Of a stretch of DNA of 64,000 bases, positions 836 to 40,936 are shown one piece after another. The notes under the pieces were generated by a model. That model searched no databases, was not told the origin of the DNA, and saw only the letters and a program-made list of their open reading frames with translations. The position numbers and the translations under genes were made by a program. The first letter of the stretch is position 1, and every line of letters begins with the position of its first letter. Source of the DNA: Trichoplax sp. H2 (Eukaryota); assembly GCA_003344405.1 (NCBI GenBank), contig NOWV01000151.1:1-64000 (forward strand), given 5' to 3'.

Positions 836-1849
836 ATGGCATCGTCATTCCTTCAGAATAATGAAGCAGCTAGAATTCTCGCTTGGTCCATTGGTATAGC
901 GGGAATTTTATGCAATTTTGCTATTTTATGGTATAATTATAAATACAAACTTCTTAAAATCAATATCCAAAACCCATTAGCAAATCATCGCCAACAATCT
1001 GCACGAAAAACATCAACTGTAACTAATCATTTAATCTGTCAATTGGCAATAGCGAATCTTCTCGGTTCCATTTATCTTATTATTATTCTTTCTGCTGATC
1101 TTTACTACGGTTATCATTATCCAAATCTCTATCGAAACCCTAATCGTAAAAATGTCACAAACCCATGGCTTCTTAGTCCTTTCTGCCATCTTAGTCGCTT
1201 CTTATATTTCACTTCTTCTGTCATGTCTATTTTGCTACCTTCAGTTATTGTTATAGATCGCTTTATTGCTATTATATTTCCTTACAGCAAATTTCGATTT
1301 AACATTTATCGTTGCCGTTTAATTACCTTGATGTGTTGGCTTGTCGTAATAGCCTATGCTCTCATCCCAACTATTCGTAATATCGCCTTTCGATTAACGA
1401 AAGCATTCGATACAAACGCTAACCTTTGCTTATATCGTGATATAGTGCTTATATACAGTACCAATCACCGACTCTCTAGGCAAATCATATATTTTATACT
1501 AACCGGAATGATTGCCATATTGTATGTTATAATTTTTATTTATATCAAATTTAAAGGGCGTAACATGCAATCTCGAACGAACAGACTTGAAAGAAAAGTG
1601 CTCATCATAATGATCATTATTACTATTTCTAACATTTGCACTTTGTTTCCTGCATTTTTTGCAAGGGCTGTATTTAGAAATCCGGCATTTAATATCCCCA
1701 GACAAACATTTCAGCGAGCATTGCCAATCTTAATATTTGCTTCGTTCGCCAGTGGTGTCATCAATCCAATTGCATATTTTATATTAAGCGTTCTAGGTAA
1801 ATGTAATGCTAACCTTCTAGCATGTTGTAAGGCTCAAAAGACACTATAA
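836..1849 (+). CDS. Intronless rhodopsin-family GPCR, LGR/RXFP-like 7TM without ectodomain (array member 1)
   Basis: 337-aa ORF with seven hydrophobic segments; TM2 LAIANLLGSIYLIII, ECL1 WLLSPFC, TM3 IDRF, TM7 INPIAY. Confidence 0.9.
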   Translation: MASSFLQNNEAARILAWSIGIAGILCNFAILWYNYKYKLLKINIQNPLANHRQQSARKTSTVTNHLICQLAIANLLGSIYLIIILSADLYYGYHYPNLYRNPNRKNVTNPWLLSPFCHLSRFLYFTSSVMSILLPSVIVIDRFIAIIFPYSKFRFNIYRCRLITLMCWLVVIAYALIPTIRNIAFRLTKAFDTNANLCLYRDIVLIYSTNHRLSRQIIYFILTGMIAILYVIIFIYIKFKGRNMQSRTNRLERKVLIIMIIITISNICTLFPAFFARAVFRNPAFNIPRQTFQRALPILIFASFASGVINPIAYFILSVLGKCNANLLACCKAQKTL

Positions 1850-4800
1850 CACTATCATACACACACAACAGTACTTTGCATAAATAAAACTTATATATCA
1901 ATATAATTTCCTTGTATTAGCTATTGCCAAACATTTACATGCAATACGGATACTGTAATGCAGCATGTAACTACTGCAATTATCTGAAATTATTATACGT
2001 AGTAAAGGCAACACTCATGCCATATAAAGCTGCAAAAAAGTAAGTAAAAAGGAAAAAAAGTGACTTTAAGTAACTAAATTCTACGGCTGGGCAAAATAAG
2101 ATTGCCAGACTATAGCGACGTATAATATGATTGTATTTCTTATTTATGACAGTGCCTTATTGTTCAGTATATAAAGTTCAAGCCTATCATATTATTAATG
2201 GATAATTGATGCTTAGTATATCTATAGCCGACAACTTTTTCTGAAAAAAAACTATGCTGTTAACAGATCTTTCTCATCAAGCCATTGCTCACAAATCATG
2301 TTTTAACCCAACTAACCCTATACTATGCCGGTAAAAATTCGTAAACGCATTCATGGATACATAAAATTTAATTCCCTACAGTCATTTGATGCAATTCGAT
2401 CTTATTAACAATCTGCTAATAAATCCTGTTAATAAAGTTGTACGCAAAATAAAAAAACGAGAAACCTATATCTTTAGCACTTATCGTATTCCAGATAGAC
2501 GATGTACTCCAGTTGTCGATGTACATTTCTTGTAGTATTGAAAAAATATTTCGCTTGTTCGTAGATACTGTACTTATAACTTCAAAGAAAGAGTATGCAG
2601 CAATCATTTCTAACAGCATAAACTATTGAAAAATTACATCTCAACGTTAAGATGAATTTTACAATATTGACGAATAAATTAAATACACGTTAGATTCGAC
2701 AGCCGCTGCATCACAGAATTTGCCGTACTTTTGTTGCAAGGGTGAAATTTTAGCTAATTTAAGAATGATAACAACAATTAAGGAATTAATTAACAGTATG
2801 TCACTTAATCAACGATACAGCATAGTAAGGGATGGTTAGGTCACTCAGGTACGTAAGCCTTCGTGATTACTATGTTGATATCTAAAATTCCACCACAGAA
2901 ATTTGATCTAGTGCATCGAATTTTAACAGCCATTGATTAATATAGATTTCTATATACTGTTCACCATAATTCTCGTGCGCCTCAGCGCTTCAAATAACAT
3001 GTCTATGATTACCTTGTTTCAGGTACGAATCCACAAAAGTATCTTCGGACGGAATAGCCAAGTGAACAAAATTTTTTGATCTTTAAGAACACTTATTGTG
3101 TTGTTGCTAGAAATCAGGTGCCATTGCAAATCAGTTTGTGATTCATACTATGCCCTGTAATAAGTAGGAGATTACAGCGAATAGAAAAGGTCTGATAATG
3201 TGCCCTCCACCGCTCATAGTAAGAGATAGGAACTACAACGTTTAGGATCAACTTTCATGAGAGAGTCATAGCCATCATATATAATTTTAGACTTAAGAGC
3301 CTAGTAATTTCATTTTGTTTTAAGCCTCTTGCACAGGTTAATTAACGTACGTAAAGTAGACGTCAATTGAACCAATATAGATAATGCATCCCCTTGCTAA
3401 CTGACTGAAGTTCACATAATTAGTAAAATGAAATTTGAACTATCTATAGGTACAACATATAATTACTTCAGTCTTAATTGTGAATAAATAAGGGGTAGTT
3501 TGATAAACACGAATACTTTACATCATATTTAAAAAAAGAAAACTAGCACAACATCTTTCGAATACTAAACCAAAAAATTATAGAGAATTACAAAATGGTC
3601 ATATTGAGTACCTGTAAAGTTACAGATGCTCGAGGCATTTAATTTAAAAATAAACCTATCGTATTGTTAATAGATTGCTTCGTAGAGTTATGCTAAAGCA
3701 TTTATGGTCCTTTAAAGGCAACTGAAAACTATATAGAAAATCTCGAAATTGACTTCTTTACGATTTGGTTTAAGAATGAAAAAATTCTCTTTATCCAATT
3801 AGATAATACAGTCCTGAAAATAAGTAGTGAATGAGAAAATACTAAATCCTGCTGTAATAGCTGAATATAACAGCAAAATGAATTCTTCTGACTATAATAC
3901 TAATATTGCTAAGAGATGCAAGATCACAATTGTAGCGATTTCAGCTAATTACAGTAGTAAGTTGAAGAAAGCTTCACTGTGTGACGTAGATTAGTCTATA
4001 AGAGGTTATTAAACTCATTCACTTGTAACAGCCAACTCTAGGCATTGTAATCGGTAAATAACTTAGGACGAATTAGAGCTGTATATCGATGAATTAAGTA
4101 TTGGTAGCTACTATGATGAGAAACTTAATCATAAGAATGTCACAAACCAGCTTCGTGAAAAAGATAGCGTAAAACAAATCTCTAAATTACAGTAGCCTTT
4201 GGGATTCAGCATCCCTTAACTATCTCACAAGAAATTAGACGCCTTTGCTTCTACTTTAAACAACTATAGAATTCCTCTTTATTCAACTATCTGCCGAGCT
4301 TAAATACCCTTCGGCAGCTGCTATCATGTATGAGTCATAGCATTTCATGCAATTTAGTGCGTATTGGATAGCTAAATTAATACAGAAATTGTTCATAATC
4401 TTAGACATGTACTGAATGATTCTAAATAATTAGATTACAGTATATCCATACAAAGAATTATTTATAGCGTCATCTATAATTGAATATTTTCAGGCTATTC
4501 ATCAGAAGCATTACAAGATATAACACTATAATGAATTAATTTTTAGTATTAGTTATCGTATAAGAACTCTTACTACAGCAGAGCATAATTTACTAAATCA
4601 AAATAATAACTACCGTAGTTCTTATTGTAAGTTATTACTAGTTATCTCCATATATAAATGTTAACCACTAAATTTAGTCGTTAGTCTTCACGACGGTTCG
4701 TATCGTTACAAGGAAATAATTGTATCCGTGCATTCGACTAAACCAAATCAAAGCAATAATATGTATCAACGTATTATTCTATTGACAAGCTATTATATCG

Positions 4801-4919
4801 TTACCATATTGTAAACTATAGCATTAAGAAATAATGACGCACTTATTCTAAATGCGATACTGAATTTGATAGTTTCTGCAACAAAATAGATAATTTCCCA
4901 ATGACTTACAGTAAGTTAT
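1315..4919 (+). repeat. Segmental duplication, copy A (paralogous to 5899-10079)
   Basis: Colinear high identity from ccgtttaattaccttgatg to atgacttacagtaagt, covering the 3' half of the GPCR and ~3 kb of flank. Confidence 0.95.
4138..4710 (-). mobile_element. Solo LTR (573 bp), 5-bp TSD AAGAA/AGGAA
   Basis: TGTCAC...GTTACA ends. The left end is the reverse complement of the family 3' end (aagctggtttgtgaca). The paralogous copy at 8745-9870 has a perfect AGGAA TSD. The older paralogous unit appears to have an empty site near 16130. Confidence 0.8.
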
Positions 4920-5878
4920 TGTAATGAAATGACAAAAGTAGAGATCAAGCTATAAAACTTTAATAAACTTTGATTCTACTTTCGTTGCACTCCGGTCGAC
5001 TTAACGCTAATTCTTTGACACCAAATAAAATTTGGGGAAATAACCGAACAACAATTTATTACAAAACAAAAATGGAGAGAAGTATAAACCGAAAAACCTT
5101 ACAAATACTTAGCTTTAAGCATTATTAAAATAAATGACAGACTTAAAAACTGTCAACGACCAAGCAACCTTTCAAAAAAGAAGAACGTTTTAACTTACGA
5201 CAATTCGACCCCGAAGGCCTTTTAAATTCAACAAGTTCTTCAAATAAAATCTTCTTCTACTCTCCCTCTAAATTTTCTAATTGCACTATCATTTATAGGC
5301 TTCGTAGAGCCGTCAGATATATTTAAAACTAAACATTTGCTAACCAATCGCTCTTAAGATCCGTTTTAGAAAACTAAATTTGCACCATTTAAGAAAACAA
5401 AAATCATTCAAAGTTCAGACGCAATTTACCCTACGATTCCCTTACAAAACACTATAAAACTAACAAGCTAACTATAAAAATACATCAAACTTCATTTCTA
5501 GCTTGATTTCTATCATTAATACACTATAAAAGTATAAAAATCAACCTTTAAACATCAAGATTTAGTCATAAAAACAACATTCTAACTACCTAACAATCAA
5601 CACAACCTCTGCCAATTTCCATCTTATTTTCTATTTTCCTAACTAAATCTCCTAATATGACTTCAAGTCACGTCATAAAATTCCAAAGTTTCAAATTCAT
5701 AACAAAAAGTCCAAATCTCAAAAATCAATTCTTACGATATTATTCATGAACAAAAATCCAAAAATTAAAACAGAAAAATTATAATTCAGATATAAATTAA
5801 AAATAAACCCGACCGGTTCCAAAACAGGAAAATTATATCGGACACAAACCCGACCGGTCCCAGAATCCGAAAACTATA
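4920..5878 (+). mobile_element. Interspersed element (LTR-like, begins TGTAATG) running into the assembly gap
   Basis: Absent from duplicate copy B at 10079. Homologous in inverse orientation to ~33794-34732 (e.g. ttcgaccccgaaggcc versus ggccttcggggtcgaa). Ends in a ~41-bp tandem repeat (aaacccgaccggt) at the gap. Confidence 0.7.
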
Positions 5879-5898
5879 NNNNNNNNNNNNNNNNNNNN
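5879..5898. other. Assembly gap (20 N)
   Basis: Run of n characters. Confidence 1.
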
Positions 5899-6472
5899 CC
5901 GTTTAATTACCTTGATGTGTTGGCTTGTCGTAATAGCCTATGCTCTCATCCCAACTATTCGTAATATCGCCTTTCGATTAACGAAAGCATTCGATACAAA
6001 CGCTAACCTTTGCTTATATCGTGATATAGTGCTTATATACAGTGCCAATCACCGACTCTCTAGGCAAATCATATATTTTATACTAACCGGAATGATTGCC
6101 ATATTGTATGTTATAATTTTTATTTATATCAAATTTAAAGGGCGTAACATGCAGTCTCGAATGAACAGAGTTGAAAGAAAAGTGCTCATCATAATGATCA
6201 TTATTACTATTTCTAACATTTGCACATTGCTTCCTGCATTTCTTGCAAGGGCTGTATTTAGAAATCCGGCATTTAATATCCCTAGACAAACATTTCAGCA
6301 AGCATTGCCAATCTTAATATTTTCTTCGTTCGCCAGTGGTGTCATCAATCCAATTGCATACTTTACATTAAGCGCTCGAAGTAAATGTGAAGCTAACCTT
6401 CTAGCGTATTGTAAAGCTCAAAAAGACACTATAACGCCATCAAACACACACAACAGTTCTTTGCATAAATAA
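5899..6472 (+). CDS. GPCR array member 2, TM4-TM7 only (5' part lost in the gap)
   Basis: Near-identical to member 1 from TM4 onward; the reading frame is open up to the gap. Confidence 0.85.
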
Positions 6473-8744: not shown

Positions 8745-9870
8745 TATCACAAACCAGCTTCGTGACAAAGATAGCGTAAAACAAATCTCTAAATTACAGT
8801 AGCCTCCGGGATTCAGTATCCCTTAACTATCTCACAAGAATTTAAACGCCTTTGCTTCTACGTTAAACAACTGTAGAACTCCTCTTTATTCAACTATCTG
8901 CCGAGCTTAAATACCCTTCGGCAGCTGCTATCATGCACGAGTCATAACAGTTCATGCAATTTAGTGCATATTGGATAGCTAAATTAATACAGAAATTGTT
9001 CATAATCTTAGACATGTACTGAATGATTCTAAATAATTAGATTACAGTATATCCATACAAAAAATTATTTACAGTGTCATCTATTATTGAATATCTTCAG
9101 GATATTCATCACAAGCGTTACAAGATATAACGCTATAATTAATTAATTTTTAGCATTAGTGTTACGGAGCTAGTAGCTCCGTGTTTACGATTAATAATTG
9201 TTTACAATCGTGTATGACCATGCTGACTAGCACCTAGTAGTAGAAAATAGCTATCATGTAATTGAAGTAAGTATTATTAGTGTGGAATTGCTATACGCAG
9301 TATTAAGGCAGTTAGCAATCAATAATTGTTGGTCGCTTAATATTATTATTGCTACTGATTATTAATCGTGTATTATTATGGTCTAACAAATAGGACATAA
9401 ATATTGTTCTCTGTTGTTGTGTGTGATAATTAGACTTGCTAACTGGAGTAACTAATATTATTGGCGACAAGTATAGTGACTGTAAATAAGAAAGGGTATT
9501 TAAGTTCTCCTGAGACTAGTGTAAAGGAGAAGTCCTTAGTGTAGCTAGAAGTTAATAAAGTTATTAACCTAGATCTATCGTTTGACTCAGTCTCTTTACT
9601 ATTGGAATAAGTTAGTTTTCCTTATAGAGGATTGCCTGAAGTTAGTCGGTGATCGGATAGAGTAGATAGAATAGACTAGGCCCGATCACGAAAGCTGTTT
9701 TGTGACAATTAGTTACCATATAAGAACTCTTACTACCGCAGAGAATAATTTACTAAAACAAAATAATAACTGCCATAGTTCTTATTGTAAGTTATTACTA
9801 GTTATCTCCATATATAAATATTAACCACTAAATTTAGTCATTAGTCTACACGATGGTTCGTACCGTGACA
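8745..9870 (-). mobile_element. Solo LTR (copy of 4138-4710) interrupted by a nested LTR; TSD AGGAA
   Basis: aggaa|tatcac...gtgaca|aggaa; length 1126 = 573 + 548 + 5. Confidence 0.85.
9160..9707 (+). mobile_element. Solo LTR (548 bp), perfect 5-bp TSD ATTAG, nested in another LTR
   Basis: attag|TGTTAC...GTGACA|attag. The empty site (single attag) is at 4548-4552 in copy A. Internal TATA-like gggtatttaag and an aataaa. Confidence 0.9.
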
Positions 9871-10963
9871 AGGAAACAATTGTATCTGTGTATTCAACTA
9901 AACCAAATCAAGGCAATAATATGTATCACCATATTATTCTATTGACAAGCTATTATATCGCTACCGTATTGTAAACTATAGCATTAAGAAACAATGACGC
10001 ACTTATTCTAAATGCGATATTGAATTTAATAGTTTTTGCTACAAAATAGATAATTTCCCAATGACTTACAGTAAGTCATGGTAAAATATAAATTATATGT
10101 AGCAGAATATAAAGAATCCTTAAGATTGTTATTTATCGATTATTTTTGTCTGATGCTATCTGATTTAAGCTTATTTAATTTTCTTAACGTTGCAATATTG
10201 TTAGTAATAATAACTTTAATTATCATAAATTATTTATTGATCACAGTATCATGTACAACGGTACAACGATATTTTAGTAACAACATAAGTTAATTCAGTA
10301 GTTAAAAACATGTTCTACTTCTTCTTCTATAGAAAAAGTTACTTGATCTATAAAGAATCCTATTGTCAAATGTTATCGTCTCCGTTACCTTTACCACTTA
10401 TATAGCTTCTATTCTTCTGTAAATTTGATAAATAATATTCATATGCAGGTTATCTTTGTGTAGCAGTAATTTCTATATGTTTACAGTTACTAGATATTTG
10501 ATAATTTCAATTGTAGTCAATCAATTACTAATTTCAAGGAAAAATTATTTTTAATTATTTTCTTTTCATTTAGTTCATTACCTTTTAAAAACCAACTCGA
10601 TTAAAGAGAACAAAAAGTTCATATGCCGTTGAATTAGATCAGATAATACCAATTCACAAAGTTTATGGCTAAAAGCAATCTAGCGTCGATACATTATAGA
10701 TATTCTGTAATCAATCATGTATGGCATTATTATTATAAGCCATTTTGTGCAATCATTATCATACACTCTACTGTACAGTGTATCAGCCATTCAGATTATT
10801 ATAAACATGTTCGTATGTTTATTTAAGAGCTTTGCATTACATTTATACAGCAATATCATAAAAGCAATTATACAAGACGCCCATCGAAGTAAACTTGATT
10901 CAGTATATTAAAGATCCAGTTATATTCATACTTGTACTAAGATCTAAAGATCACATTTTTGGC

Positions 10964-12004
10964 ATGCCTTTTTCGTTCTTACAAGATCATCATGCAGCTC
11001 GAATCTTCGCTTGGTCTATTGGTATATTCGGTATTTTAAGCAATCTTACAGTTTTATGGTGTAACAATAAGCACAAACTTGTTAAAGCTTTCAGTGGCAA
11101 ATCATTGGATAATTATGATCGTCGCAATCAAACTACAAGGAAGGTATCAAAGGTATCCAATCTTTTAATCTGTCATTTGGCAGCTGCTGATCTCCTGGGC
11201 GCCTCTTATCTAATTATTATTGCTTCTGCTGATATTTACTATGGCTATTATCATCCAAATATGTTTCGAAACCCCATTTCTGGAAATAGTACGAATTTGT
11301 GGCTTCTTAGTCCTTTTTGTCATATAAGTCGCTTCTTATTTTTTTGCTCTTCTATGATATCTATTCTGATAACATTGGTGATTGCAATAGACCGCTTCAT
11401 TACTGTCATTTTCTCGCACAGTAAATTAAGATTAAGCATCTTTCGCTGTCAAATAATCACTTCAGCATGTTGGCTTTTCAGTATAGGCTATGCTCTTATT
11501 CCAACTATCCTTAATATTATTGTAATACACACAATATCGAAGTATCGATTTGATATGAGTTCTAATCTTTGCCTATTTTTCAATGTAGTACCATTCTCCT
11601 ACTCAGTTTATTTCCTATCCAGGGAAATTATTTACTTTACGTTAATCGGACTGATTATAATTTTTTATCTATTAATTATAATTTATGTCAAAATTAAAAG
11701 AAGTAATTTAGGATCTCAAATGAACAGAGTTGAAAGAAGAATATCTCTTATTATGATCATTTTAACTATCTCAAATATTTGCAGTCTCCTCCCTTCATTC
11801 TTCATATATTCATTAACCCAAGACGATTATTCCTTGATCGCTATGCAAACTTATCAGCGTACTATCACTATGTTCATATTTGCTATATTCGCAAATACTG
11901 CAATCAATCCAATTGTATATTTTAAATTAACTGCTTCCATTGAAATTAGAACGTCTTTCTCGTGGTTTAAAACTAAAAGAGTATCTGTAGTGCCAGCAAA
12001 TTAA
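10964..12004 (+). CDS. GPCR array member 3
   Basis: ATG at 10964 (MPFSFLQ) aligns with the paralog starts; LAAADLLGASYLIII, IDRF, INPIVY. Confidence 0.9.
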   Translation: MPFSFLQDHHAARIFAWSIGIFGILSNLTVLWCNNKHKLVKAFSGKSLDNYDRRNQTTRKVSKVSNLLICHLAAADLLGASYLIIIASADIYYGYYHPNMFRNPISGNSTNLWLLSPFCHISRFLFFCSSMISILITLVIAIDRFITVIFSHSKLRLSIFRCQIITSACWLFSIGYALIPTILNIIVIHTISKYRFDMSSNLCLFFNVVPFSYSVYFLSREIIYFTLIGLIIIFYLLIIIYVKIKRSNLGSQMNRVERRISLIMIILTISNICSLLPSFFIYSLTQDDYSLIAMQTYQRTITMFIFAIFANTAINPIVYFKLTASIEIRTSFSWFKTKRVSVVPAN

Positions 12005-15000
12005 TCTGTAAATTTTAGCTCGAAACTTTTTTTCTGATAGATATCATCGTTCCCCGAGGCGAACCAAATAATATATTGATATCCAATATGTTAACGTTAA
12101 ATTCGCAAGAATTTTCAGCGATGATTTAAAGTGCTACATAATCGATGAAGCAATTGCAAATAAGCAATTGCTACGCGTATAGGGCTATAAGTAGGATTTA
12201 TTATTGCTAACTCTATCGTTCTGTATTCTAGTTTCCTTAAGATTTTTAGAACTAAAGATTATATCTAGCAATATGTGTATGTAGATATTAAACGATAACT
12301 GAAATAGCCTAGTACTAATGGTTTTAAAGTATGGTACACTACTCAAAATTGTAGAATGTACTACGTACTGAAATCATTATCGATTTAGTTAACAATCAGT
12401 TTTCATGATTGATACTCTGTTTTCTTGATTATCGTTTTTGAAGCTATCATTCCAATAAGCTAATATCATCAGATTTATCTACTGGCATTTACTATTATTC
12501 TGTGATGGTTTCAATTAATAGTATGCAATGCCAATGAGTTCATAAGAGTAAATTAAAATATTATCCTAAAATTGTTTATTGAAAACCAAGCGTTAGCATG
12601 GAAATCGATTTAATTATCCAAGCTGATATTTGATATTCGTATATTGTATCTTATTACCAATGAACTTAACCTAGACTTGACATTTATAAATAACGACGAT
12701 CATTTATAAAGAATGTTTATTTAATACTATATAAAATTTCCCGTTTTTTTCAGAAATGTTCAATACTTTTTTTTATCAGCACTACCGAATTTATTGTCAA
12801 TCATCAATTAGCCAATATAGCCAATATTTCCTTTTTTTAGCAGCCCTGAGCAGAGACTTCCAAGAAAAATTTCTCATAGCAGTCTCTACTTCAACCATTC
12901 CCTGAAAGTACTATTAGCAAAAGGCAGAGATTAAGAATATATTACTAGTACAATATTTAACTTAATTACTGATAAATTGCCGTAGATCAGTTAATAGGCG
13001 TACTACCTATAATGATATGCTGTTGCATCTCCGAACGTTAAACCTACATCAATCAAATGCATGCTATTTGAGAGCTTCGAAGTTATTTCAAGAATTTGTC
13101 ATAAACTGACTTAGGCTATCTCTGAATATCTGTGTCTGAACATAGCTGCTTCACTCTAAATTGAAAAAGAATTGAACATAAGGGAGTAAAAGCGGCATAT
13201 TACAACAGAATTTAGAATACGATTTAAGCATATTAACACGTTTCTTGTTCCAGCCATATAATACTTGATTAAGACATAATTGGGCTTGAAGAACTGGTTC
13301 TAAAATGTTCGCCTGTTTTGGCCAACTAAGTAAGTTTGATGTATCATCAATTGGAACGATTGCTAGCGTAGCGGTAGATAAAATCTCATGTCCTATAATC
13401 GAATAAAACTATTTGCGAATTTTATTTTATTTATTGCATATACTTAGTTTATTATTAGTATCAAAGGTAACTTTAAATTACAATAAACAAGTAGTCCAAA
13501 ATATTTGACATTCATGGATGATCTCATCCGTAAATCTCTCACATTAATGATCAATCAAGTCTATGAATTAAAATGGATACGAAAGCTACATACTTTTGTC
13601 TATTTATGGTATATAAAATAAAGTCTACTTTAAATCATGATAGCTTTCTATTTCGAATCACCCATTCTTTCTTATTTCTTACTTCACAGTAACTTTACAA
13701 CCAAAGGAATAAATAACGATTTATTTTGTTGTACTTCAAGTAATGAATTTGTGCAAAGTACTAACGCCGACTGTTACTACAAAACTAGGAATCATCAAAA
13801 GAAAAAATTCATCCTTTATATTATGGTCGACAGATTGGGCTAATTATTAATTTCTTACTGGTACTTCCATTAAAAATGCATCCATAACTTGTAAATCAGC
13901 TAATACATGTTCAGCTCTGTACACGAGACGTTATACTATCATGATATTATGATTTCTTTGAGATCGACTAAATCTGCATGTGGGAAAACGGTAGCCGTGA
14001 TAGATTAAGGGTATTAAATAAGTGAGAAATCAGAGAGAAGGATAGCAACAGAGGGTTTAAAGAGGTTTTATTTGACCAGCGATCGCGCGTATTAAAAGAT
14101 TAGATGAACCGTGAGTTTAAGATACTAAAGTATTTGATGCACAATGCCAACGTAAAATGTTCAGGGTTTCGAATTACATTCCTTTATGGACCTTATTTTC
14201 TATCTGCAAGAATACTCAACAGTATCCCATAGCAGAACGGTTAAAATGTAATAAGAAATTTACGGATCTTTACTTACACTATTGCGTTATTAGAAATCAG
14301 GGCCATTGTAAATTAAGTCTATGAATAAAATGCACACTGTAATAGATCGAAGTTTACAGCTGGTAGAAAGGAGTCTAAATAACATGCTCTACCTCTCGTA
14401 ATAAGAGATATAAACCGCAATATTGACGATCAAGTTTTAATGAGAAGACCATAGCCGTCATACGTCATTGTAGATTTTAGAGCCAAATAATACTATTCTG
14501 TTTTCAGTCTCTGCCATTGGTTGACTACCGTACATGCATTTCCAGTAAATTATTATTGATAACCCATCTCTCCCTAATTGAATAAAGCCCATATATTTGA
14601 CAGTATGAAAATATGCATTATCTGCAGTCAAAACAGATATTACTTGGATATAAAATTACGAGTAAATAAGAAGCAGTTTTTGTAGTTACGAACAATCTAG
14701 ATTATACTCGTGTACATATCTTAAATCAAAATTAAGTGAAATAATAAAATACTCTAATTGATTAAAAACAATGTTACAGTTGCTTGCGATATCTGATCTA
14801 GACTAGTCCATAACATTTTCACAATGATGTTCCTGAGATAATTATAGTCTCATTTAACGCATTATTTGAAAGCTATGTACAATGCACAATTCTTCTATAT
14901 TGCTGCATTGTGACTAATTAATGTAAATACGGTATGATAGCTTTGCATCACTATTATTGATCGATACTTATACTCTATGTGCATCCTCTTCAATTCACTG

Positions 15001-17165
15001 TTACCACAGTTACTTTGAAGATATCTACATATTAGACATGAGAAAGGTTCGGCTCAGCTTTATCATCAAAAGTTATCTAGTAACAATTAGGATGCTTGCA
15101 TGCCAAATTCATGAATAGAATCCTTTATTTTCACAATATAACTTGATGTGGTAGGATCGCATGCCTTGTTATGCACTATTTCTAATTATCACGTGCCATC
15201 ATTGGATATGCTTTTTATTTTCGCTTTAGAAACGAGTATAAGCAGGTTAAGTAATAAAACAACAAAATTGTCATGGCAATAAAATAATATATATCGGAAA
15301 TAGGTACACTGCTGACGTTAGCTCTATCGAAATATACAAGTAAATTCAAAGCAGCAATTATCAGGATCTTCTTCGTAGTTAATAGTAGGAAATCTAATAT
15401 ATTATTTCTAACGTGCAGTATTACAAATGACAACTTAATATCTATACTGAACATGAACTGTACCCAATAGCATATCCGAATATTAAAATTATTGGTATAA
15501 AAGAATAAAATAAAAGAAAACAAAAATGCGTCCTTAAAAAAATCTCGCTTTTAATATATACTATTTAGCGCTACCGCAGGTACAAAAACAGTCAATCACT
15601 TGTGCACAAGAATCGATCATTGTCGATTCTAGGTAAAAAATTCTAACCATTGAAATAACTATACTAGGTAGTGATATAAATATAATATAGCACTATTTGC
15701 TTTAAACTCAGCTAGAAATAAATGACTAATCATAAATTTTATTATTAATTAATTACTTCGTAGAATTGTACTCAAGCATCCATGGTCCTTTAATGGCAAC
15801 TGGAAACTATATCGGAAAATATGAAATTTCCTTCTTAACAAATGGGCCTACGTATAAACTAATTTATTACATTTCATTAGAGAATATGGTCTCGAAAATA
15901 ATTAGTAAAGAAGAAAATATTAAATTCCGGTTGTTATGTGTGTTATACATATAGCAGTAAAGAATAAATATGTATGATAATAATACTGATACTACTTTTT
16001 AAAATATTTAGGTGCATTGTAAAAATTTGCAATTAACTCAAGACATTTTGTCGTCAAAATTTTTGATGATTAGAATTTTATATCAATGCAATAGTTTTTT
16101 GTGGCTAACATGACAAAGTGTTCAATCTTAGAAAACAATTGAATATATACAATTTACTAACCTAAAGTAAAGAACAATATATATCATATTATAATTCTTT
16201 TGAAAGGCTATTATACCGCTTGCACTTTATGAAATATAGCAGTAAGTAAAGTATTGATACTAGATCTTATATTGAGTTTTATAGTTGCTACAGCAATACA
16301 AATAAGAATTCGTAAAATTTACACTATGTCGTAGTAAAAGATGACTTATATACAGTAGGAATGCAAAGAATATGTAAAGTAGTTCTTTATTATTTTAGCA
16401 ACATATGCTACGTAAAGGTACTGTATCAACTGCTATTCCATAGCTAAAACGATCTTCTTAATGTTGTAATATAACTATTAATGGCGATAGTATCATGGAA
16501 ATAAAATTTAATAGCAAAAGAAATTAAATCAGAAATTAATGACATAAACTTTCTTTCATCGAATGAAATTTTGGTCTATATTAGTTTCTTGGTGACGAAT
16601 CCTATCCTCTCTATTGCATTCACAACTTTCATAACTTCTATTCTTCGGTAAATTTGATAATTAATGGTTACAGATCGCCAGAGTGTAACTGAAATTTTTT
16701 TAATTTAAAGTAATTAATGTTTATTGACTTCAATTTTGGGAAATTAATAACCAATTCAATAAAGGAGATCATTATTATTTAACTATTTTCCTCACAGGAC
16801 GTTTATTACTTGAACAAACGACCTGATCATAGAAAAGAAGATGCTCATCAAATAATACCGATTCGTAAGGCTTATATCTGAAAAAGAATCTATAGAATCA
16901 ACACATAATAGATATTTAGCAGTTAATTATCTGGTCAATACATTATTATAGGCTATTTTAAAATAATCATTATAAATCTATTTCAATCATCGTAATATTC
17001 ATAAACCTATTTATACTTTAAGTGTATTAGAACATCCTTTATTACTTATATGATATCATAAGTACAGCTATAAAGAGCGCCATCGAAGTGAACCTGATTC
17101 AGTATATTAAAGATTCAGCTACATTCATATTAATACTAGACATCTAGCAGTCCACATATTTAACC

Positions 17166-18224
17166 ATGCCTTTCTCGTTCCTACAAGATCATCACGCAGC
17201 TCGAATCATTGCCTGGTCTATTGGCATATTCGGTGTTTTAAGCAATCTTGCAATTTTATGGCGTAACAATAAATATAAATTCGTTAAAACTTTTAATAGC
17301 AATCCATTGGATAATCGCCGTAATCAACCTGCAAAGAAAGTGTCTACGATTATTAATTATTTAATCTGTCACTTGGCAACTGCTGATCTCCTAGGCGCCT
17401 CTTATCTAATTATTATTGCTTCTGCTGATCTTTACTATGGCTATCATCATCCAAATATGTTTCAAAATCCTAGTCCTGGAAATAGTACGAATCTCTGGCT
17501 TCTTAGTCCTTTTTGTCATCTTAGTCGTTTCTTAATTTTCTGTACTTCTATAGTATCTATTCTGATAACATTTGTGATTGCAATAGATCGCTTTATTACT
17601 GTTATTTTCCTCCGTTATAGATTACGATTAAATATCTTTCGTTGTCAAATGATCATTTTAGCATGTTGGCTTTTCAGTATAGGCTATGCTCTCATTCCAA
17701 CTATCCGTAATATTATTGTAATGCACCCGGTATCGAAGTATCGATTTGATATGGTTTCGAATCTTTGCCTATATCTCGATGTAGTACCATATTACTCCGC
17801 AGCTTACATCCTATCCAGGCAAATTATTTACTTTACGTTAATCGGACTGATTGCAATGATGTATCTATTAATTATAATTTATATTAAAGCTAGAGGACGC
17901 AATTTAGGATCTCGAAAGAACAGAGTTGAAAAAAGGATATTTCTTATTATGATCATTATAACTATCTCCAATATTTGCAGTCTCCTACCTTCATTCCTTG
18001 TGTTTACGCTAGCCCGAGATGAATCTTCCTTGGTCGCTATTCAATCTTTTCAGCGTACTTTCACAATATTCATAGTTGCTGTATTCGCAAATACTGCAAT
18101 CAATCCAATTGTATATTTTGCATTAACCACTTCAATTAAAAATAGAGCCCCTTTCTTGAGGTTTAGTACTAAAAAAAATAAGGTAAGACCTGTAAATAAA
18201 CCCGAAAATTTCAAGCCAAAATGA
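17166..18224 (+). CDS. GPCR array member 4
   Basis: 352-aa ORF, close paralog of member 3. Confidence 0.9.
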   Translation: MPFSFLQDHHAARIIAWSIGIFGVLSNLAILWRNNKYKFVKTFNSNPLDNRRNQPAKKVSTIINYLICHLATADLLGASYLIIIASADLYYGYHHPNMFQNPSPGNSTNLWLLSPFCHLSRFLIFCTSIVSILITFVIAIDRFITVIFLRYRLRLNIFRCQMIILACWLFSIGYALIPTIRNIIVMHPVSKYRFDMVSNLCLYLDVVPYYSAAYILSRQIIYFTLIGLIAMMYLLIIIYIKARGRNLGSRKNRVEKRIFLIMIIITISNICSLLPSFLVFTLARDESSLVAIQSFQRTFTIFIVAVFANTAINPIVYFALTTSIKNRAPFLRFSTKKNKVRPVNKPENFKPK

Positions 18225-21200: not shown

Positions 21201-21789
21201 TATTTATAACCTTTAGACCTTACGTAAGCTGAAGACTTCCACATATTCGCCTAGTCTAATTCTCCTTACAAGCAGCACCTTCATTTAGAGAAAATATACT
21301 CATTTTCTTATTATATTACCAATACAACAGTTTGAAACAAGGCAATCGTGCAACATGGAGATCTTTATTAAGCGAGAATAATAGACTAACAGGCTTAAAT
21401 ATAATTTAAAGCAATTCAAGACTAAAAACATATACCAATCAAATATTAGTAAGATTCCAATTTATTAGTCCAAAAATACCTCTTCTAAAATATTTAAGCT
21501 TGATCTATGAACCGTATGAAAGTTAGCCACTAGATGGTTTATCAGATACCAATAAATAAGTCATCAAAAAAGCAGCGCTGTAATCAGGGTTGAAGTATTT
21601 AAAGCCACATAATACTGAACAGTGAAGCGTATAGTCATAGCAGTAAACTCGCGCTAATTTGATGTGATTGTTAGTATCGATAACAGTTATTTATTAATGT
21701 CTAGAATCTTCGCTTTTCTTTGATTTTTTGCATCTTGGGCATGATCAAGTTAAATCAATACGTAATAAGTTTATTTTAAACTTATATCA

Positions 21790-22736
21790 GCATACATCCA
21801 TTATTTCGGCATAAATTTTAGGACTAATTGGATTTATAGCCAATGTGGTCTACTCCTAACTGCTACAAAACGTTGTTATATGAATAGTAATGATGCTATT
21901 CTTAGCCGCCCTAAATGCAGACGAGTACATCCAACGGCTCGAATACTACTGATCAATCTAATGATCGTCGATTTTTTGGCGCAGTTTATCTTACCATTGT
22001 TGCTATTGCTACTACTGTTTACAACGTTCATCCTCACATCGGAGGGAATCATTCTCTACTAGATGGGGATGTCAACTGCAGTAATAGTCTTTTTGTCATG
22101 TTGTGGGCAATTAATCCATTTTGTAGCCTTGCTAGATTCCTTTACTTTCTCTCGATGACTACGTCAATTTTATTAATACTTTTAATAGCGATTGAACGGT
22201 ACTTGGTATTAATTCGATCGCTTCGGTCAACAACAGCAAATGTTAGTGGTTTTAAGATCATTTTAGTATTATGTTGGCTATTTTGTATCGCTAGAGCTCT
22301 CTATTCTACAATACGAGCTCTATTAATTTCACATCTGGTAAAAAATCAGACACAAATCAATTTAATGTTATGCTTACTGGCTGATACTGACATTTGAAAT
22401 ACGATATTTAAATATACTTAATGTAAGTATATTTTATGTTGGATTTATCCTGACCGTTATTATTCATACAGCATTATTGATCCGGCTACACCAAATTAAA
22501 GGCTTAGTTTAATATAATCAAGTAAAGTCGGAAATACCCTTAGCTAAGACACTCATTTATATAACTCTTAGCAATTTTATATCCATGATTCCAATTACTG
22601 TTATCATTATGTGCCACATATAGCGTTACCTATTATTATGAGTTCAACTTTTATGCACACCAGCCCAATTTATGTCGTATTCATGTATATCATCTCAATA
22701 GGCAATCCTCTAATCTATTTAAAGCCAACAAATTAA
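21790..22736 (+). pseudogene. Disabled GPCR paralog
   Basis: Fragments GLIGFIAN, ILLINLMIVDF/FGAVYLTIV (frameshift), WAINPFC, IERY, ITLSNFISMIP and GNPLIY, broken by stops and frameshifts. Confidence 0.85.
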
Positions 22737-23263
22737 ACGGAAAACATCGATACCAAGCCATTCGTATTAATTTTAAATAACGACAATAACGTATCCTGCA
22801 TGTTCAGATGCAAAATTTGTACGATATTAAATTACTAGCTGGTCTGCTACAACTACTATAGCCACATATAAAATCTATTAATGAATTATGTTTAGCATAG
22901 TTTTATATACGTACGCTTATTAAGTTTACGGCAACTGTATAATAGTCCAGCTAATGTTCTTAAATCTATCACTATTTTAAAATTATCTTCAACAGGCCAA
23001 TTCCATCATGACTTAGATATCATAAAATCAAACACTTTCTCTTTGGCTTTTTCATCCACCTTCATCTTTTATTTCCGTCAGAACTTGTACTCCTAATGAC
23101 GCACAGTACGAAACACAGTATGCGTATATTAAAGAATCTTTAAAAATTTTTTAAATTTGTCCTTTGTAGCAATGACTCTTATACTTCATCGCCAGTCAGC
23201 TAATCTAATGGAGGTATATTGTGTTATTATATTGGACATTAGTAATCCTAAAAATTAACGGAG

Positions 23264-28937: not shown

Positions 28938-29993
28938 ATGTTCTATTCCCTACTACAGGGCAATGAACCATCTAGGATATTGGGATGGATAATAGGAATT
29001 GTTGGTTTATTGGCCAATTCTAGCCTTCTTCTGTATCATTTTAAACGCAAATTGTTTAAATCATCCAAAACTAATCATCACAAAATTATTACGTCAAAGT
29101 CACGCTCTATCACCAAATTTTTAATTCGTCAGTTAGCCCTAGCTGACTTACTTGGTTCCCTTTACGTTATTATTATCAGTTCAGCCGATAGTTATTATGG
29201 TTATCGTTACCCTGAAATTTATCAAATACCCAATCCTTCAAATCAGACTAATATATGGACGTTAAACCCGCTCTGCCATATAGCACGATTTTGTTTTTCC
29301 ACTTCATCAGTACTCTCTATTGCCATTACACTGGTCATTGCCTATGATCGACTTGTCGCTGTCATATTCCCGCACAGTAAAGCAAGGTTAAATTTATTTA
29401 AAAGCCGGATTGTGATATCTGTTTGCTGGCTAATTTGTTGTGCTTTTGGTCTTATTCCAACAATACGAGGAATAATATCAGCTCCGTACTTTGCCCAAAG
29501 TTTTAATTGGCGCTTAAACATTTGCATGTATACTGACATCGTAAAAATCATTTTGACTATTTTCTTTAGAACTAGGGCTGCAATATACTTTGGCTGCTGT
29601 AGCTCAATTGCATTAATTTATGTTGTCATCATTGTCTATGTTAGAAATAAACGACGCAGAATAGCATCCGGAATGAATCAAATTGAACGACGTATCTTCA
29701 TAGTCATGATGATCATCACAGCTGTAAATGTTTGTAGCTTGCTCCCTTCAACAATTATATATGGGATGCCTTATAATATCAGACAGCTCCCTCATGTTGT
29801 TTACGCAACGTCTATCACAATTATGTTTACCTTTTCTAACGCTGCTATCAATCCGTTCATTTACATATTTTTATCATCCTCACGAAAGCGTTATATTGTA
29901 TGCTGTGGAAATTCTTCTAAAGTAGCTGTTAAGAACATCGCTGTTAGCGAAAACAAACCTAAATCAACAGAAGTTGCGGTGTTTTCTAAGTAG
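28938..29993 (+). CDS. GPCR array member 6
   Basis: 351-aa ORF; MFYSLLQG start, LALADLLGSLYVIII, YDRL, INPFIY. Confidence 0.9.
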   Translation: MFYSLLQGNEPSRILGWIIGIVGLLANSSLLLYHFKRKLFKSSKTNHHKIITSKSRSITKFLIRQLALADLLGSLYVIIISSADSYYGYRYPEIYQIPNPSNQTNIWTLNPLCHIARFCFSTSSVLSIAITLVIAYDRLVAVIFPHSKARLNLFKSRIVISVCWLICCAFGLIPTIRGIISAPYFAQSFNWRLNICMYTDIVKIILTIFFRTRAAIYFGCCSSIALIYVVIIVYVRNKRRRIASGMNQIERRIFIVMMIITAVNVCSLLPSTIIYGMPYNIRQLPHVVYATSITIMFTFSNAAINPFIYIFLSSSRKRYIVCCGNSSKVAVKNIAVSENKPKSTEVAVFSK

Positions 29994-33793: not shown

Positions 33794-34732
33794 TGTAAAA
33801 TCTTTTGATAAATGAATATGTGATCTTTATAAAATTCGGATTTTTTGCATTCAGATTCCGGAACCAGTCATATCTGTGTCCTATTTAATTTCTGGATTTT
33901 AATTTTTGGAAAATATTGCAAGAGTTGATTTTTGAAATTTGAACTATTCGTTGTTAATTTGAAATTTGGGAATTTTATGACAAGACATAAATGTTACATT
34001 AGGAAAGTTTAGTTAAGAAAATGGATAATAAGATGGCAAATAGCAGAGATTGTGTTGATTCTTAAGTAGTTAGGCTGTTATTTTTATGACTAAATCTTCA
34101 TGTTTAAAGATTAATTTTTAGACTTTTATAATGTATTAATGATTAGAAATTATATCGGAAGTGAAGATTGATGTATTTTATAGTTAGTTTGTTGGTTTTA
34201 TAGTGTTGTTTTGTAAGGGAATCATAAGGTAACTTATTTCTGAACTTTGAATGATTTTTGTTTTCTTAAGTGGTGCAAAGCAGTTTTCTGAAATGAATCT
34301 TAAGAGCGATTGGTTAATAAGTGTTTAGTTTTAAATACCACTGACAGCTCCGTGAAGTCTATAAATGATAGTGCAATCAGAAAATTTAGAGAAGAGAGTA
34401 AAAGAAGATTTTGAAGAACTTGTTGAATTCTAAAGGCCTTCGGGGTCGAACTCTTGCAGTAAAAATGTTCTTCTTTTTGTCAGGTTGTTTGGTTGTTGAC
34501 AGTTTCAGTTCTGTCCTTTTCTTTATTTCTTTACTATAATACTTAGAATTAAGAATTAAGTATTTGGAAGGTTGTTTGATTTGGCTCTCTGAAGTTTTCT
34601 TAATAAATTGTTGATTGATTGTTTACCCAATTTTTATTTGGTGTCAAAGTTGTGTAACGTTGACCAGAGTGTAAAGAAAGTACAAAGTTAGAAGTTTTGT
34701 AGCTTGATTTCTACACATTGTATTTCATAACA
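33794..34732 (-). mobile_element. Inverted copy of the 4920-5878 element
   Basis: Reverse complement starts tgttatgaaat...gtagaaatcaagcta and is colinear with 4920 onward. The left boundary is approximate and no TSD was found. Confidence 0.7.
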
Positions 34733-37243: not shown

Positions 37244-37625
37244 TATGCATAATTTCGTTGTAAAAACTGAAAATTATATCTCCTAAAATTATGTAGGGTA
37301 ATTTTGCATTTTGTTTAGCTTCGAAATAATACTAGTATCGAAGGCGTACTTCTTTACGTCATACTACTTCCTGCTAATAGTAAACTTAACTAAGACATAT
37401 TATCTCCCATGGTAACTAAAGCATTAAAGATAAAGATTTTGTATCCCCAAAAATCGCTATTCTCGAAGATTATTCATCATTCTCATAACCAGTATAAACT
37501 GGTTACACTTTAAGAAAGTAATTATGTAATTAAAATTATATCATAGCAATGAATAAGATGTCAAGAAATAGAGTGAAACTTACTCCTTTTGAATTATGAC
37601 GATTAATTTTAAATTATATTTTATA

Positions 37626-38530
37626 GCTTTAAGCTAAAAACTTCGCCTCGTATTTCTTCAAAGCTTAGCATAGTAAAATAGAGTATGCCTTTAAAATATC
37701 ATAGTTCAAAGTGGTAGTACCGATGATAAAATTATTCTATGTGGATCACGTTCGTATACAGATACCAATATCCGAAGATGCTTTTCCATATTTTTTTACC
37801 GTAATTATTATTCATTATATCAAATATAAGACCATTTGAAATAATACTAAAATTAGCGATTCAATTAAATTATTCTCTTTATTACTGAAAATCAAATTCA
37901 ACTTATATTATTGCTATTGCTTTTCTACCCTTATCAAATAGATTAAATGCCCAAAATAGCAACTTTTATATAAGTAACGTATATAAAACAAACTAACCAC
38001 TATAACATTTTTTTTTTACTTCTGTGCAATAATAATATAATTTAGGACTGAAATTTTTCAACCAAGACCAGATTTACTCTTATGTTTCATTGCTTTAAGC
38101 TGTAAATTTTATCTTGTATTTCTTCTTACTTTAGCATAGTAAAACAGAGTATGCCATTAAAATATCACTGTTCAAACCGATAGTATTGACGACAAAGTTA
38201 TTCCGTATGGATCATTGCTAGTATGCAGATACCAATTTCCCAAAGTACTTTTCCATATTTATTTACCGTATTTATTGTTTATCATATCAAATATAAAGAC
38301 CATTTGAAATAATAATACAAATAGTGATTTAATCAAATATATCTTTCACTCTGAAAACTTAGCCCAATTTATAGCAATAGTTACTTCTCTGCTCTTATTA
38401 AATAGATTAAATGTCCTAAATATATTTTATCCAAAGCAAAGTATATGAAACAGACCAACCACTATGAAATTTCTCTGTTACATTTTTGCGTTATCAATAT
38501 AGTTTAGGACTGAAATTCTTCAGCCATGGG
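37626..38530 (+). repeat. Diverged tandem duplication, two ~460-bp units
   Basis: gctttaagct..ttagcatagtaaaa.agagtatgcc and tttaggactgaaatt each occur twice, ~460 bp apart. Confidence 0.85.
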
Positions 38531-39562: not shown

Positions 39563-40936
39563 ATGTCTTACTCGCTTTTTCAAGGCAACGACTTTGCAAG
39601 ATATTTCTGTTGGATATTCGCAATTATTGGGATCTTTGGTAATGCCTACATTATAATTTCCTGTTGCACTAAAAAAATAAGTAAAATAGCTCCTAAAAAG
39701 AATTCAACACATCAAAGCAATTCAATTTCAGAGAAATCGACCAAAGTAACGCACTTGTTAGTTTGTCAGCTAGCCATAGCAGATCTTCTAGGTTGTTTAT
39801 ATCTTTTAATCATAGCATGTGCCGATATTTATTATAGTTATCAATATCCGGCTATTTATCAAGTTCACCAACCTAAAAATTTCACTAACATATGGGTACT
39901 GAGTCCATTTTGTTACATTGCCAAATATTGTTTCTTTACATCATCTATTGCATCCATTTCCATTACGCTCTTAATCACTTTTGATCGCTTTATGGCCGTT
40001 ATTTTCCCTTACAGTAGATTCAGATTAGACAAATACAAGTGTTACTTTATAATTCCAACATTGTGGTGCTTGCTTTGCTGTTATGGTTGTATACCACTCG
40101 TAATAGGGACAAAAGCGATTGACCAAGCAACAAAGACATTTAATTTTGCCAGTAATTTGTGTATTTATAAACAAAATACTTCAGGCTATAAGCTATTTCT
40201 TTATTTCAGAGTAGGGATCTATTTTACGTTTTGTACTTTAATCACTTTAGGTTATATTTGCATTATCATTAACGTTCGAGCTAAGAGCAGCAAAGTTTCC
40301 ACTCAAATAAATCGAATTGAACGTCGAATCTTAGCTATGATGATCATCATTACCGCAAGCAATATTGCCAGCTTACTACCATCCACAATTTTATTTACAA
40401 GTCCAGATTTTAAGAAATTTAGTTCTTATAGATCTTTTGAACAGAATAGATCATCAGAAATAAATGGAACTTCAGGTCGGAACGGATTGATGGATGGAAA
40501 TGAGTTATTAGATTGGATTGGATTGCCTAATACGAATAAGTCATTTACTTTGAACGCAACATCTGGATGGCATCTATTGTCTAGAACCAATGAATCATCT
40601 AGCTGGAATGGAAAGCAGGGACTGAATAATTCAACACGATGGAACATCTTATCAAGAAGCAATAATTTTAATAATTTAACAAGGACTAAAGAAGGCTCCA
40701 AAAGCCACGAAAGTTCGTCACAAATGCAGCAATTAAAGGGATGGTACCAAATTTCGCTGGCCTTAGTCAGTGCTACAGTTTTTACCTTTGTTAACGCTGC
40801 AATAAACCCAGTGATTTTTGCATACTTCTCATGGTCCACTAGCCATCGTAAATGGTTCTGCTGTAATATAAATCTAAGTTCAAAGCAAAACGTCATGAAT
40901 GCAATTTGGTCTAAACATTTACCCTATAAGAAATGA
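39563..40936 (+). CDS. GPCR array member 7 with a large ECL3 insertion
   Basis: MSYSLFQG start (alternative ATG at 39557); LAIADLLGCLYLLII, FDRF, INPVIF; ~105 extra aa between TM6 and TM7. Confidence 0.9.
   Translation: MSYSLFQGNDFARYFCWIFAIIGIFGNAYIIISCCTKKISKIAPKKNSTHQSNSISEKSTKVTHLLVCQLAIADLLGCLYLLIIACADIYYSYQYPAIYQVHQPKNFTNIWVLSPFCYIAKYCFFTSSIASISITLLITFDRFMAVIFPYSRFRLDKYKCYFIIPTLWCLLCCYGCIPLVIGTKAIDQATKTFNFASNLCIYKQNTSGYKLFLYFRVGIYFTFCTLITLGYICIIINVRAKSSKVSTQINRIERRILAMMIIITASNIASLLPSTILFTSPDFKKFSSYRSFEQNRSSEINGTSGRNGLMDGNELLDWIGLPNTNKSFTLNATSGWHLLSRTNESSSWNGKQGLNNSTRWNILSRSNNFNNLTRTKEGSKSHESSSQMQQLKGWYQISLALVSATVFTFVNAAINPVIFAYFSWSTSHRKWFCCNINLSSKQNVMNAIWSKHLPYKK

Follow-up and report, generated by a model that had tools for sequence, protein, structure and literature searches.

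G-protein-coupled receptors that contain leucine-rich repeats (LGRs) have the ectodomain as their defining feature, and the way in which their seven-transmembrane (7TM) core is driven by the hinge and the internal agonist is a central question for the TSH, FSH, LH and relaxin receptors. According to the accessible parts of PMC5401882, the TSH receptor (TSHR) has an inhibitory hinge, its ectodomain switches from tethered inverse agonist to agonist, the internal agonist adjoining the first transmembrane helix (TM1) lies between the loops, and Asp633 is a switch residue of the core. The available text of PMC4079206 places LGRs bearing leucine-rich repeats (LRRs) also in sponges and ctenophores, and that of PMC9545775 counts 46 LGRs in Trichoplax adhaerens, 41 of them placozoan-specific with hinges and many LRRs (34 in the example). 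Independent duplications of receptors coupled to G proteins (GPCRs) in two placozoans are reported in excerpts of PMC6067683, and excerpts of PMC6267866 and PMC13403566 suggest chemosensory roles for GRL101 receptors that keep their LRRs. We found no account of ectodomain-less LGR relatives in the literature; subscription papers, figures and some supplements could hold one. Here we describe such relatives, called headless below, in a 64,000-nucleotide stretch of Trichoplax sp. H2 (contig NOWV01000151.1, positions 1 to 64,000; the window), where seven copies lie in tandem on the + strand at 836-40936. The genes are already in public annotations under LGR-derived names; what seems new is a first extracellular loop (ECL1) of about doubled length and predicted glycosylation, an Asp-to-Asn change at position 6.44 (class A numbering), and a ligand pocket that appears to have gone from conserved to variable.

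The window has 32% G+C and a single N gap, at 5879-5898. Its seven 7tm_1 copies comprise five intact genes, one copy interrupted by the gap (g2) and one pseudogene (g5):

836..1849, + strand: g1, intact ectodomain-less LGR-type class A GPCR, 337 aa, Asn at 2.50.
5900..6472, + strand: g2, recent duplicate of g1 of which the 3' half, from TM4 on, is present; the 5' half is lost in gap 5879-5898.
10964..12004, + strand: g3, intact, 346 aa; 10992-11472 covered by recorded RNA run X8.
16648..16739, + strand: probable 92-nt intron in the 5' untranslated leader of g4.
16740..17165, + strand: g4 leader, 426 nt, with nine stops in the gene frame and two upstream ATGs.
17166..18224, + strand: g4, intact, 352 aa.
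About 21767..22757, + strand: g5, full-length pseudogene with several frameshifts and stops; its closest relative is the upstream copy L002:2008-3105.
28938..29993, + strand: g6, intact, 351 aa; coding parts covered by recorded RNA run X8.
39563..40936, + strand: g7, intact; 457 aa, or 459 when started at a second in-frame ATG, 39557.

PF00001 scored above its cut-off in all five intact copies. These start, as a preliminary description of the window had noted, at an equivalent Met shortly before TM1: all fit M-x-[S/F/Y]-S-[F/L]-[L/F]-Q, have a TM1 Trp 16 residues past the Met, an in-frame stop 5-34 codons 5' of the start and an N-x-T sequon in ECL1. In an AlphaFold model of g4 (predicted local distance difference test score 85, predicted template modelling score 0.84) seven long helices are seen, with TM1 running from residue 10. 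From the TM2 motif quoted in that description g1 departs by having Asn for the TM2 Asp. Its count of seven same-strand paralogs with intronless coding sequence was correct; g4 has a probable intron in its 5' untranslated region (5'-UTR), and the array continues upstream with three further copies on another contig (G000:C241, loci L002 and L003). Of the two copies outside its five complete ones, g5 is a pseudogene of full length, and g2 is cut by the N gap and not shown to be broken. Birth and death of copies, which it had proposed, can be seen in recent duplicates (g2 against the g1 unit, 92.6% identity over 3.27 kb), in old ones (4-kb units of g3, 9871-13860, and g4, 16130-20050, 70.7% identity) and in the pseudogene. 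The gene anatomy resembles that of chemoreceptor arrays, with tandem birth and death and a diversified pocket.

The array is not alone in the genome. Three genome searches gave at least 116, at least 95 and at least 119 matches and were complemented by one outgroup search; the 120 stretches fetched are not all of the matches. Requiring a profile match and at least 280 aa left 111 distinct frames, a few near-identical pairs of which may be haplotypes. Of these frames, 55 are headless and 37 are last exons of hinge-bearing genes (one of them broken); the rest are a single type A/B LGR and 18 class A receptors of other kinds. The headless label was assigned by anatomy before any tree was built, and the set was recovered as one clade in three trees (support 0.811; 99; 100/100). 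The type A/B LGR is a 697-aa open frame (L057:955-3045, - strand) with a long hinge on the 7TM exon, and its nearest named proteins are TSHR and FSHR. Beyond this genome, the best 53 matches of a profile search in 1.84 billion proteins were 52 proteins of 265-459 aa and one long LRR receptor; many profile matches were 32-77% identical to genes of this genome and lay on ENA or Logan contigs. A word-based homolog search gave four proteins, and none of 484 pattern matches in a metagenome scan was confirmed. Among named proteins the nearest is the 355-aa 'GRL101-like protein [Trichoplax sp. H2]', encoded just upstream of the array, and all named headless proteins are from Trichoplax. In the accessible supplements of PMC10580291, the orthogroups of four headless T. 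adhaerens models include Hoilungia hongkongensis (three of four) and the HoiH23 genome (four of four), and OG_4397, assigned to the array via gene order, has members in all four placozoan genomes (27 of 29 rows). The array is thus one part of a genome-wide, phylum-level clade and not a local or species-level expansion. The lineage-specific repertoire initially suggested is in this respect wider than was thought; its sensory role stays tentative, the members being found in peptidergic modules like most placozoan GPCRs.

Profile, fold, residues and trees agree with the LGR-type 7TM domain that the preliminary description had recognised. With g4 as single query, SSTR5 and GALR1 scored about 2 bits above TSHR in the PDB, while a 32-member profile had TSHR and FSHR as its top PDB matches and a fold search had TSHR/FSHR at ranks 1-6. 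All six longer homologs combine LRRs with 7tm_1, at 23-25% identity. The TM1 Trp is found in 48/52 and the TM2 Tyr in 50/52 headless receptors, against 0/18 for both in the other class A receptors of the genome. Headless receptors and LGRs were separated from other class A receptors with support 0.976 and a value of 100 in the Shimodaira-Hasegawa-like approximate likelihood-ratio test (outgroups of 18 and 14 receptors from the same genome); the tree rows knowingly included none from human RXFP, sponges or ctenophores. These comparisons support LGR-type ancestry of the 7TM domain. An Atlas feature search, in which unrelated class A clusters reached 0.95-0.97, was discarded as uninformative.

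The placement inside the LGRs differs between trees. In an ingroup tree, which omits 14 outgroups and 15 long or redundant rows and takes its type A/B root from the accessible part of PMC4079206, the headless clade lies within type C. Its sister group is formed by the placozoan-specific LGRs (100/94), and another placozoan receptor branches off next (97/87). Joining the headless clade to type A/B was rejected by the approximately unbiased (AU) test (p-AU 0.019). Because the sister group consists of many-LRR placozoan LGRs, we favour loss of the ectodomain, as first proposed, over primitive absence; the alignment and trees make this probable, dependent on the root.

That the clade is headless is very probable. 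In 53 of the 55 clade members (52 intact, one frameshifted) the TM1 Trp is preceded by a Met at a distance of 13-24 residues, compared with 8/36 hinge-bearing paralogs, whose 7TM domain is encoded on a single last exon. The array Met aligns to the second residue of the FNPCEDIMG segment of a TSHR, and the headless N-terminus aligns residue by residue with the hinge end; the Cys of this hinge/tethered-agonist segment is present in 60/61 LRR-type LGRs and in 1/52 headless receptors. Upstream DNA was scanned with an LRR-unit profile built partly from two Trichoplax ectodomains, the headless upstream regions being shorter than the hinge-bearing ones and mutually overlapping. At 8 bits it gave signal upstream of 19/20 hinge-bearing genes (70 units in 162 kb; 9 antisense) and in 7/25 headless upstream regions (9 units in 148 kb; 5 antisense), which is background; at 10 bits the counts were 16/20 and 3/25. 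The 71-kb array held six sense and two antisense units, and the strongest match (11.7 bits) was dismissed as lying within the g3 coding sequence in another frame. This profile replaced a tblastn search of the upstream regions with 44 ectodomains, which recovered 9/20 controls and in which one query carried a second 7TM domain. A regular expression for the LDLa motif had no match in the six frames of the window, and loose LRR expressions matched only in scattered places.

Sequencing runs and relatives point the same way. Contigs of runs X4, X5 and X7 pass the g4 in-frame stop (17145-17147) and ATG without a joint, and none of six listed joints falls on a coding start; it should be noted that stretches lacking run cover were not taken as evidence, and that run depth was not used to rank genes. 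The X4 and X5 contigs skip 92 bases upstream of g4 (16647-16738, joint 16646-16739), which is probably a 5'-UTR intron, the alternative being a genomic deletion in another strain. The GT donor block is conserved upstream of g3, where the matching acceptor site reads AG; it reads GG in the g4 of the window, and the X7 contig is unspliced across the site. Among relatives from other assemblies 30/31 start 15-24 residues before the Trp without the Cys, and hinge-type calls on the relatives' contigs start within the hinge. P0030, 43% identical to g6, begins at the same Met, and public models of headless genes hold 7tm_1 only. The absence of ectodomain coding upstream, claimed from the first, is supported by the background LRR signal, the unspliced g4 start and the missing hinge Cys. 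Loose ends before 16976 and 16179 were considered as upstream exons and rejected, as both 30-mers occur exactly elsewhere in the genome and only 18-19 bases are common with the window. Another loose end in the run contigs, at 18113 following TM7 of g4, is the same as that at 11917 in g3 and is absent from the window.

The headless receptors keep most residues typical of class A: N1.50 in 50/52, D2.50 in 47/52, the C3.25-ECL2 Cys pair in 52/52, R3.50 in 51/52, W4.50 in 50/52 and P7.50 in 52/52. Counted from D2.64 to the Trp, ECL1 measures 13-15 residues in each of the 61 LRR-type LGRs; in 52 headless receptors it measures 18-50 (median 24.5). It carries a sequon in 6/61 and 51/52, respectively, so that the long ECL1 with a sequon reported for the complete array members is a feature of the clade; that this loop makes up for the missing ectodomain, as first suggested, is speculative. 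The span of the first intracellular loop is 29 in the placozoan-specific LGRs and 45 in headless receptors. D6.44 is present in 55/61 LRR-type LGRs and in 0-1/52 headless receptors, 44/52 of which have Asn there; the TM7 Pro of the LP-x-NS motif is kept in 60/61 versus 3/52, and P4.60 and P7.43 are mostly missing. At 3.29 the headless receptors have Arg (37) or else Gln, His or Lys, next to a D2.64 retained in 51/52. Two ECL1 cysteines occur in 7/52 members, the subclade L010-L014, L020 and L038, possibly as an extra disulfide loop.

Pocket variability was measured at 22 canonical class A positions, located by counting from conserved helix residues. Their entropy is 2.54 bits in headless receptors (2.24 at other TM sites; 2.28 at outer-half non-pocket sites) and 1.70 bits in LRR-type LGRs (1.98 at other TM sites). 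Against non-pocket sites matched for LGR entropy the headless pocket is more variable with p=0.0001, and with p=0.0046 when TM5 is left out. By this measure the pocket positions went from conserved to variable. The ratio of nonsynonymous to synonymous substitution rates (dN/dS) is 0.04-0.63 in 11 pairs, the twelfth being saturated; as all 11 estimable pairs are below 1, we regard the genes as functional. For the outer loops, a check proposed in the preliminary description, it is 0.14-0.68 in eight estimable pairs. A partial list of 17 variant codons of g4 in the run contigs has eight silent and nine not.

Cell-type assignment, likewise proposed, rests on published tables, here the accessible supplements of PMC10580291, where 9 of the 11 members with a module row fall in peptidergic modules. 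Four members found by accession are in peptidergic mu (0.985), theta (0.763) and omicron (0.663) and in fibre cells (0.585); of the six traced through their orthogroup, two are in eta, one each in delta, mu and epsilon, and one in a module without annotation; the iota module holds the one placed by gene order. TrispH2_000888 belongs to the delta module (0.958) and is g4 by gene order. Ten loci stand against nine consecutive ids (883-891), of which 883 and 889 are in a separate orthogroup; we equate 888 with g4 because 883 and 889 share an orthogroup just as L002:2008 and g5 are mutual closest relatives. One headless gene is labelled HG34.2:NA there, separate from the RXFP group HG16. The accessible parts of that paper do not settle which peptidergic cells are sensory, and the terms LGR and LRR are not used in them.

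The account we lean towards, with modest confidence, is that an LGR core without an ectodomain binds a small ligand directly in its membrane pocket and signals in peptidergic cells. The anatomy, the clade, the residue changes and the purifying selection on which it builds are established. In one ancestral type-C-like placozoan LGR all sequence 5' of the final few hinge residues, with the signal peptide, LRRs and hinge cysteines, would have been lost, and a start codon would have arisen where the tethered agonist had been. The 7TM core, encoded on a single exon, would then have multiplied by tandem duplication before the split of the sampled placozoan genera, with TM1 possibly acting as signal anchor for insertion without an ectodomain. 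We suggest a small molecule or short peptide as ligand, bound in an outer transmembrane pocket that may be framed by the lengthened, glycosylated ECL1 and by the conserved pair of D2.64 and a basic or polar 3.29. Variable pocket walls could give each paralog its own specificity, D6.44N together with the loss of P4.60 and P7.43 might retune the LGR switch, and in particular peptidergic (neuron-like secretory) cell types the conserved DR[FY], Y5.58 and NP motifs would relay the signal to a G protein. The loss, the pocket binding and the G-protein coupling are what we infer. The small-molecule agonists ML109, Org43553 and compound 716340 bind in the membrane pocket of type A receptors, and the titles of their solved complexes indicate that such a core can be driven by small molecules.

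Several points weigh against this account. In free trees with 18 or 14 distant outgroups the clade is sister to all LRR-bearing LGRs (0.934 in FastTree; 58 under LG+C20); when it is constrained to group with the placozoan-specific LGRs, the log-likelihood is 3.41 higher, which is not significantly better (p-AU 0.607), and both groups are long-branched and may attract each other. Two of the 55 members have no Met at the usual place, runs X4, X5 and X7 are RNA by guess only and about 3% divergent from g4, and recorded RNA run X8 covers coding parts of g3 and g6 and reaches no start codon. P6.50 is missing in 14/52 and Y7.53 in 20/52, the pocket positions do not come from coordinates and the sites are not independent, and the pairwise dN/dS of eight pairs, a weak measure, gives no sign of positive selection on outer loops. 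In the accessible tables, 8/9 array gene ids are without a module row, the fibre module holds one member and another is in unknown cells, and peptidergic cells express most placozoan GPCRs, largely placozoan-specific ones (PMC10580291).

Two alternatives concern the missing ectodomain itself. The frames might be last exons onto which LRR micro-exons are spliced from upstream, an annotation artefact that we consider very improbable. The hinge-bearing paralogs do have their 7TM domain on one last exon, g4 has an AG five codons before the Met, directly after the in-frame stop, short LRR exons are hard to detect (as the tblastn controls illustrate) and the upstream copy L002:2008 has no usual Met, as is also the case for the open frame L102:1943-2806; P0054, a relative of L002:2008-3105, has one. 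However, an artefact would not explain a Met position conserved among paralogs only 20-30% identical, absent hinge cysteines, an LRR signal at background, contigs unspliced through the g4 start behind a leader with nine in-frame stops, relatives elsewhere that begin in the same way, or public models with 7tm_1 only. Alternatively the clade never had an ectodomain and is an old LGR sister lineage kept in placozoans only, which we hold to be unlikely. This is the arrangement of the free trees and was not rejected, but its support is low under the mixture model, the nested tree has the higher likelihood, and the ingroup tree puts the clade two placozoan nodes deep within type C. The residue-by-residue match of the N-terminus to the hinge end and the restriction of named headless proteins to Trichoplax speak against it as well. 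Since LRR-bearing LGRs occur in sponges and ctenophores, every other phylum would have had to lose the lineage.

The other alternatives accept headless receptors and differ in what drives them. Within direct pocket binding we tentatively rank environmental cues first, slightly ahead of the animal's own peptides. We speculate, equally tentatively, that this is a placozoan chemoreceptor family from a decapitated hormone-type LGR, in which the latent core pocket became the ligand site and more than 50 paralogs in distinct peptidergic cells sense distinct environmental chemicals; the sister clade may have gone the opposite way, to ectodomains of dozens of LRRs. Short secreted peptides acting in a paracrine manner on the same architecture are a somewhat less likely sub-case. 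Different members mark different peptidergic cell types, the loops are under purifying selection, the best PDB matches of the single query are the peptide receptors SSTR5 and GALR1, and in the accessible tables the small orthogroups OG_5787, OG_7353 and OG_9610 are common to three or four placozoan genomes. On the other side stand tandem arrays, recent duplicates, pseudogenes and lineage-specific copy numbers, which are more typical of receptors for outside cues. Further, for one member the 29 docking rows seen of the 60 listed in PMC10580291 have pDockQ values of at most 0.154, below the authors' 0.23 cut-off. Since the TSHR hinge is inhibitory and its internal agonist adjoins TM1, the main mechanistic rival to pocket binding is a core that works without a ligand of its own, through basal G-protein tone, or one driven in trans by a separate LRR protein or through dimers formed with the giant LRR-bearing LGRs. 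The Asn at the residue matching TSHR Asp633 fits such a core, and nine proteins with LRRs and a single transmembrane helix are described for this species in the accessible part of PMC6321704. Yet neither the diversified pocket nor more than 50 copies under purifying selection would have a reason, and the internal-agonist Cys and acidic residues are lost. Asp-to-Asn at the Asp633 site is, moreover, probably the least activating substitution in human receptors, and we consider this alternative rather unlikely.

Some further features of the array and its surroundings should be mentioned. The third extracellular loop of g7 has 141 residues, with an insertion at about 40421-40748 of some 105 residues, Asn/Ser-rich and with seven sequons. 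P0031 (454 aa, 44% identical to g7) keeps a long loop there, with an insertion about as long that is unrelated in sequence and has few sequons; this is possibly a second extracellular add-on. The final 42.9 kb of the upstream contig (G000:C241:1616998-1659863) duplicate window positions 1-42866 with identical genes. This is an assembly overlap, which was counted once; it yields duplicate gene models and may hide expression through multi-mapping. An orphan contig of 2617 bases (G000:C1032, L004) carries, at 96.5% identity, the 5' half of a g1-like gene together with 1 kb of the DNA upstream of it, and is either the missing half of g2 or another g1 haplotype. Dispersed repeats within the array pair 4920-5769 with 33884-34732 (79.6%, inverted) and 4548-4924 with 9708-10084 (92.3%, direct), the repeat at 4920-5769 lying just ahead of the g2 gap, and a tandem duplicate of 450 bases pairs 37614-38064 with 38080-38526 (76%). 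Degenerate TACAG/GTACA simple-repeat tracts at 43285-43333 and 61296-61588 give rise to spurious long frames. The neighbours of the array are:

46634-47437, + strand: RGG-rich frame without a Pfam match.
53406-53732, - strand: legume-lectin-like exon (E 0.052).
57982-58350, - strand: coiled-coil exon, probably HMG20-like, judging by gene order.
62407-63432, - strand: unrelated single-exon class A GPCR.

Similar neighbours flank the Hoilungia cluster g07235-g07239 in the accessible tables of PMC10580291.

The clade offers more than 50 natural cores under purifying selection, which show the residues altered once ectodomain control is gone (the Cys, D6.44, P4.60, P7.43 and ECL1) and are ready test cases. 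For early animal evolution it provides a compact set of single-exon, readily expressed receptors in the neuron-like cells of an animal without nerves, and what these cells sense thereby becomes directly testable. The names 'GRL101-like', 'TSHR' and 'RXFP2' mislead for headless genes, and a clade of similar size is probably overlooked when LGRs are counted by their LRRs.

Among known systems the placozoan-specific LGRs come closest. They are the sister group in the same genome, likewise in tandem arrays with the 7TM domain on one exon, and share the TM1 Trp, TM2 Tyr, D2.64, ECL1 Trp and Cys and N7.45; unlike the headless receptors they have a signal-bearing ectodomain of many LRRs and a Cys-rich hinge, and conserve D6.44, P4.60, P7.43, W5.39 and Y6.52. 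With the type C LGRs (RXFP1/RXFP2, GRL101) the headless receptors have in common 7TM ancestry and D-R at 3.49-3.50. GRL101 is the top Atlas structure match (TM score 0.73), and the 'GRL101-like' name of public models comes from similarity; however, LDLa, LRRs and hinge are missing, identity is 23-25%, and there is no basis for relaxin- or insulin-like ligands. The type A receptors TSHR, FSHR and LHCGR give the best PDB profile and fold matches, and the headless N-terminus aligns with their FNPCEDIMG internal agonist, but the headless start codon lies inside this segment, its Cys and Asp are lost, and no hormone-binding surface is left. Having neither LRRs nor hinge, the headless receptors are class A GPCRs and not LGRs by membership, and offshoots of LGRs by descent. 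In gene organisation they resemble vertebrate olfactory and echinoderm odorant-receptor-like GPCRs, with one coding exon, short N-terminus, 5'-UTR intron, tandem arrays, pseudogenes and a variable pocket. They differ from these in having no sequence membership in such families, in their LGR derivation, in carrying the sequon in ECL1 and not in the N-terminus, and in that an environmental ligand is only proposed.

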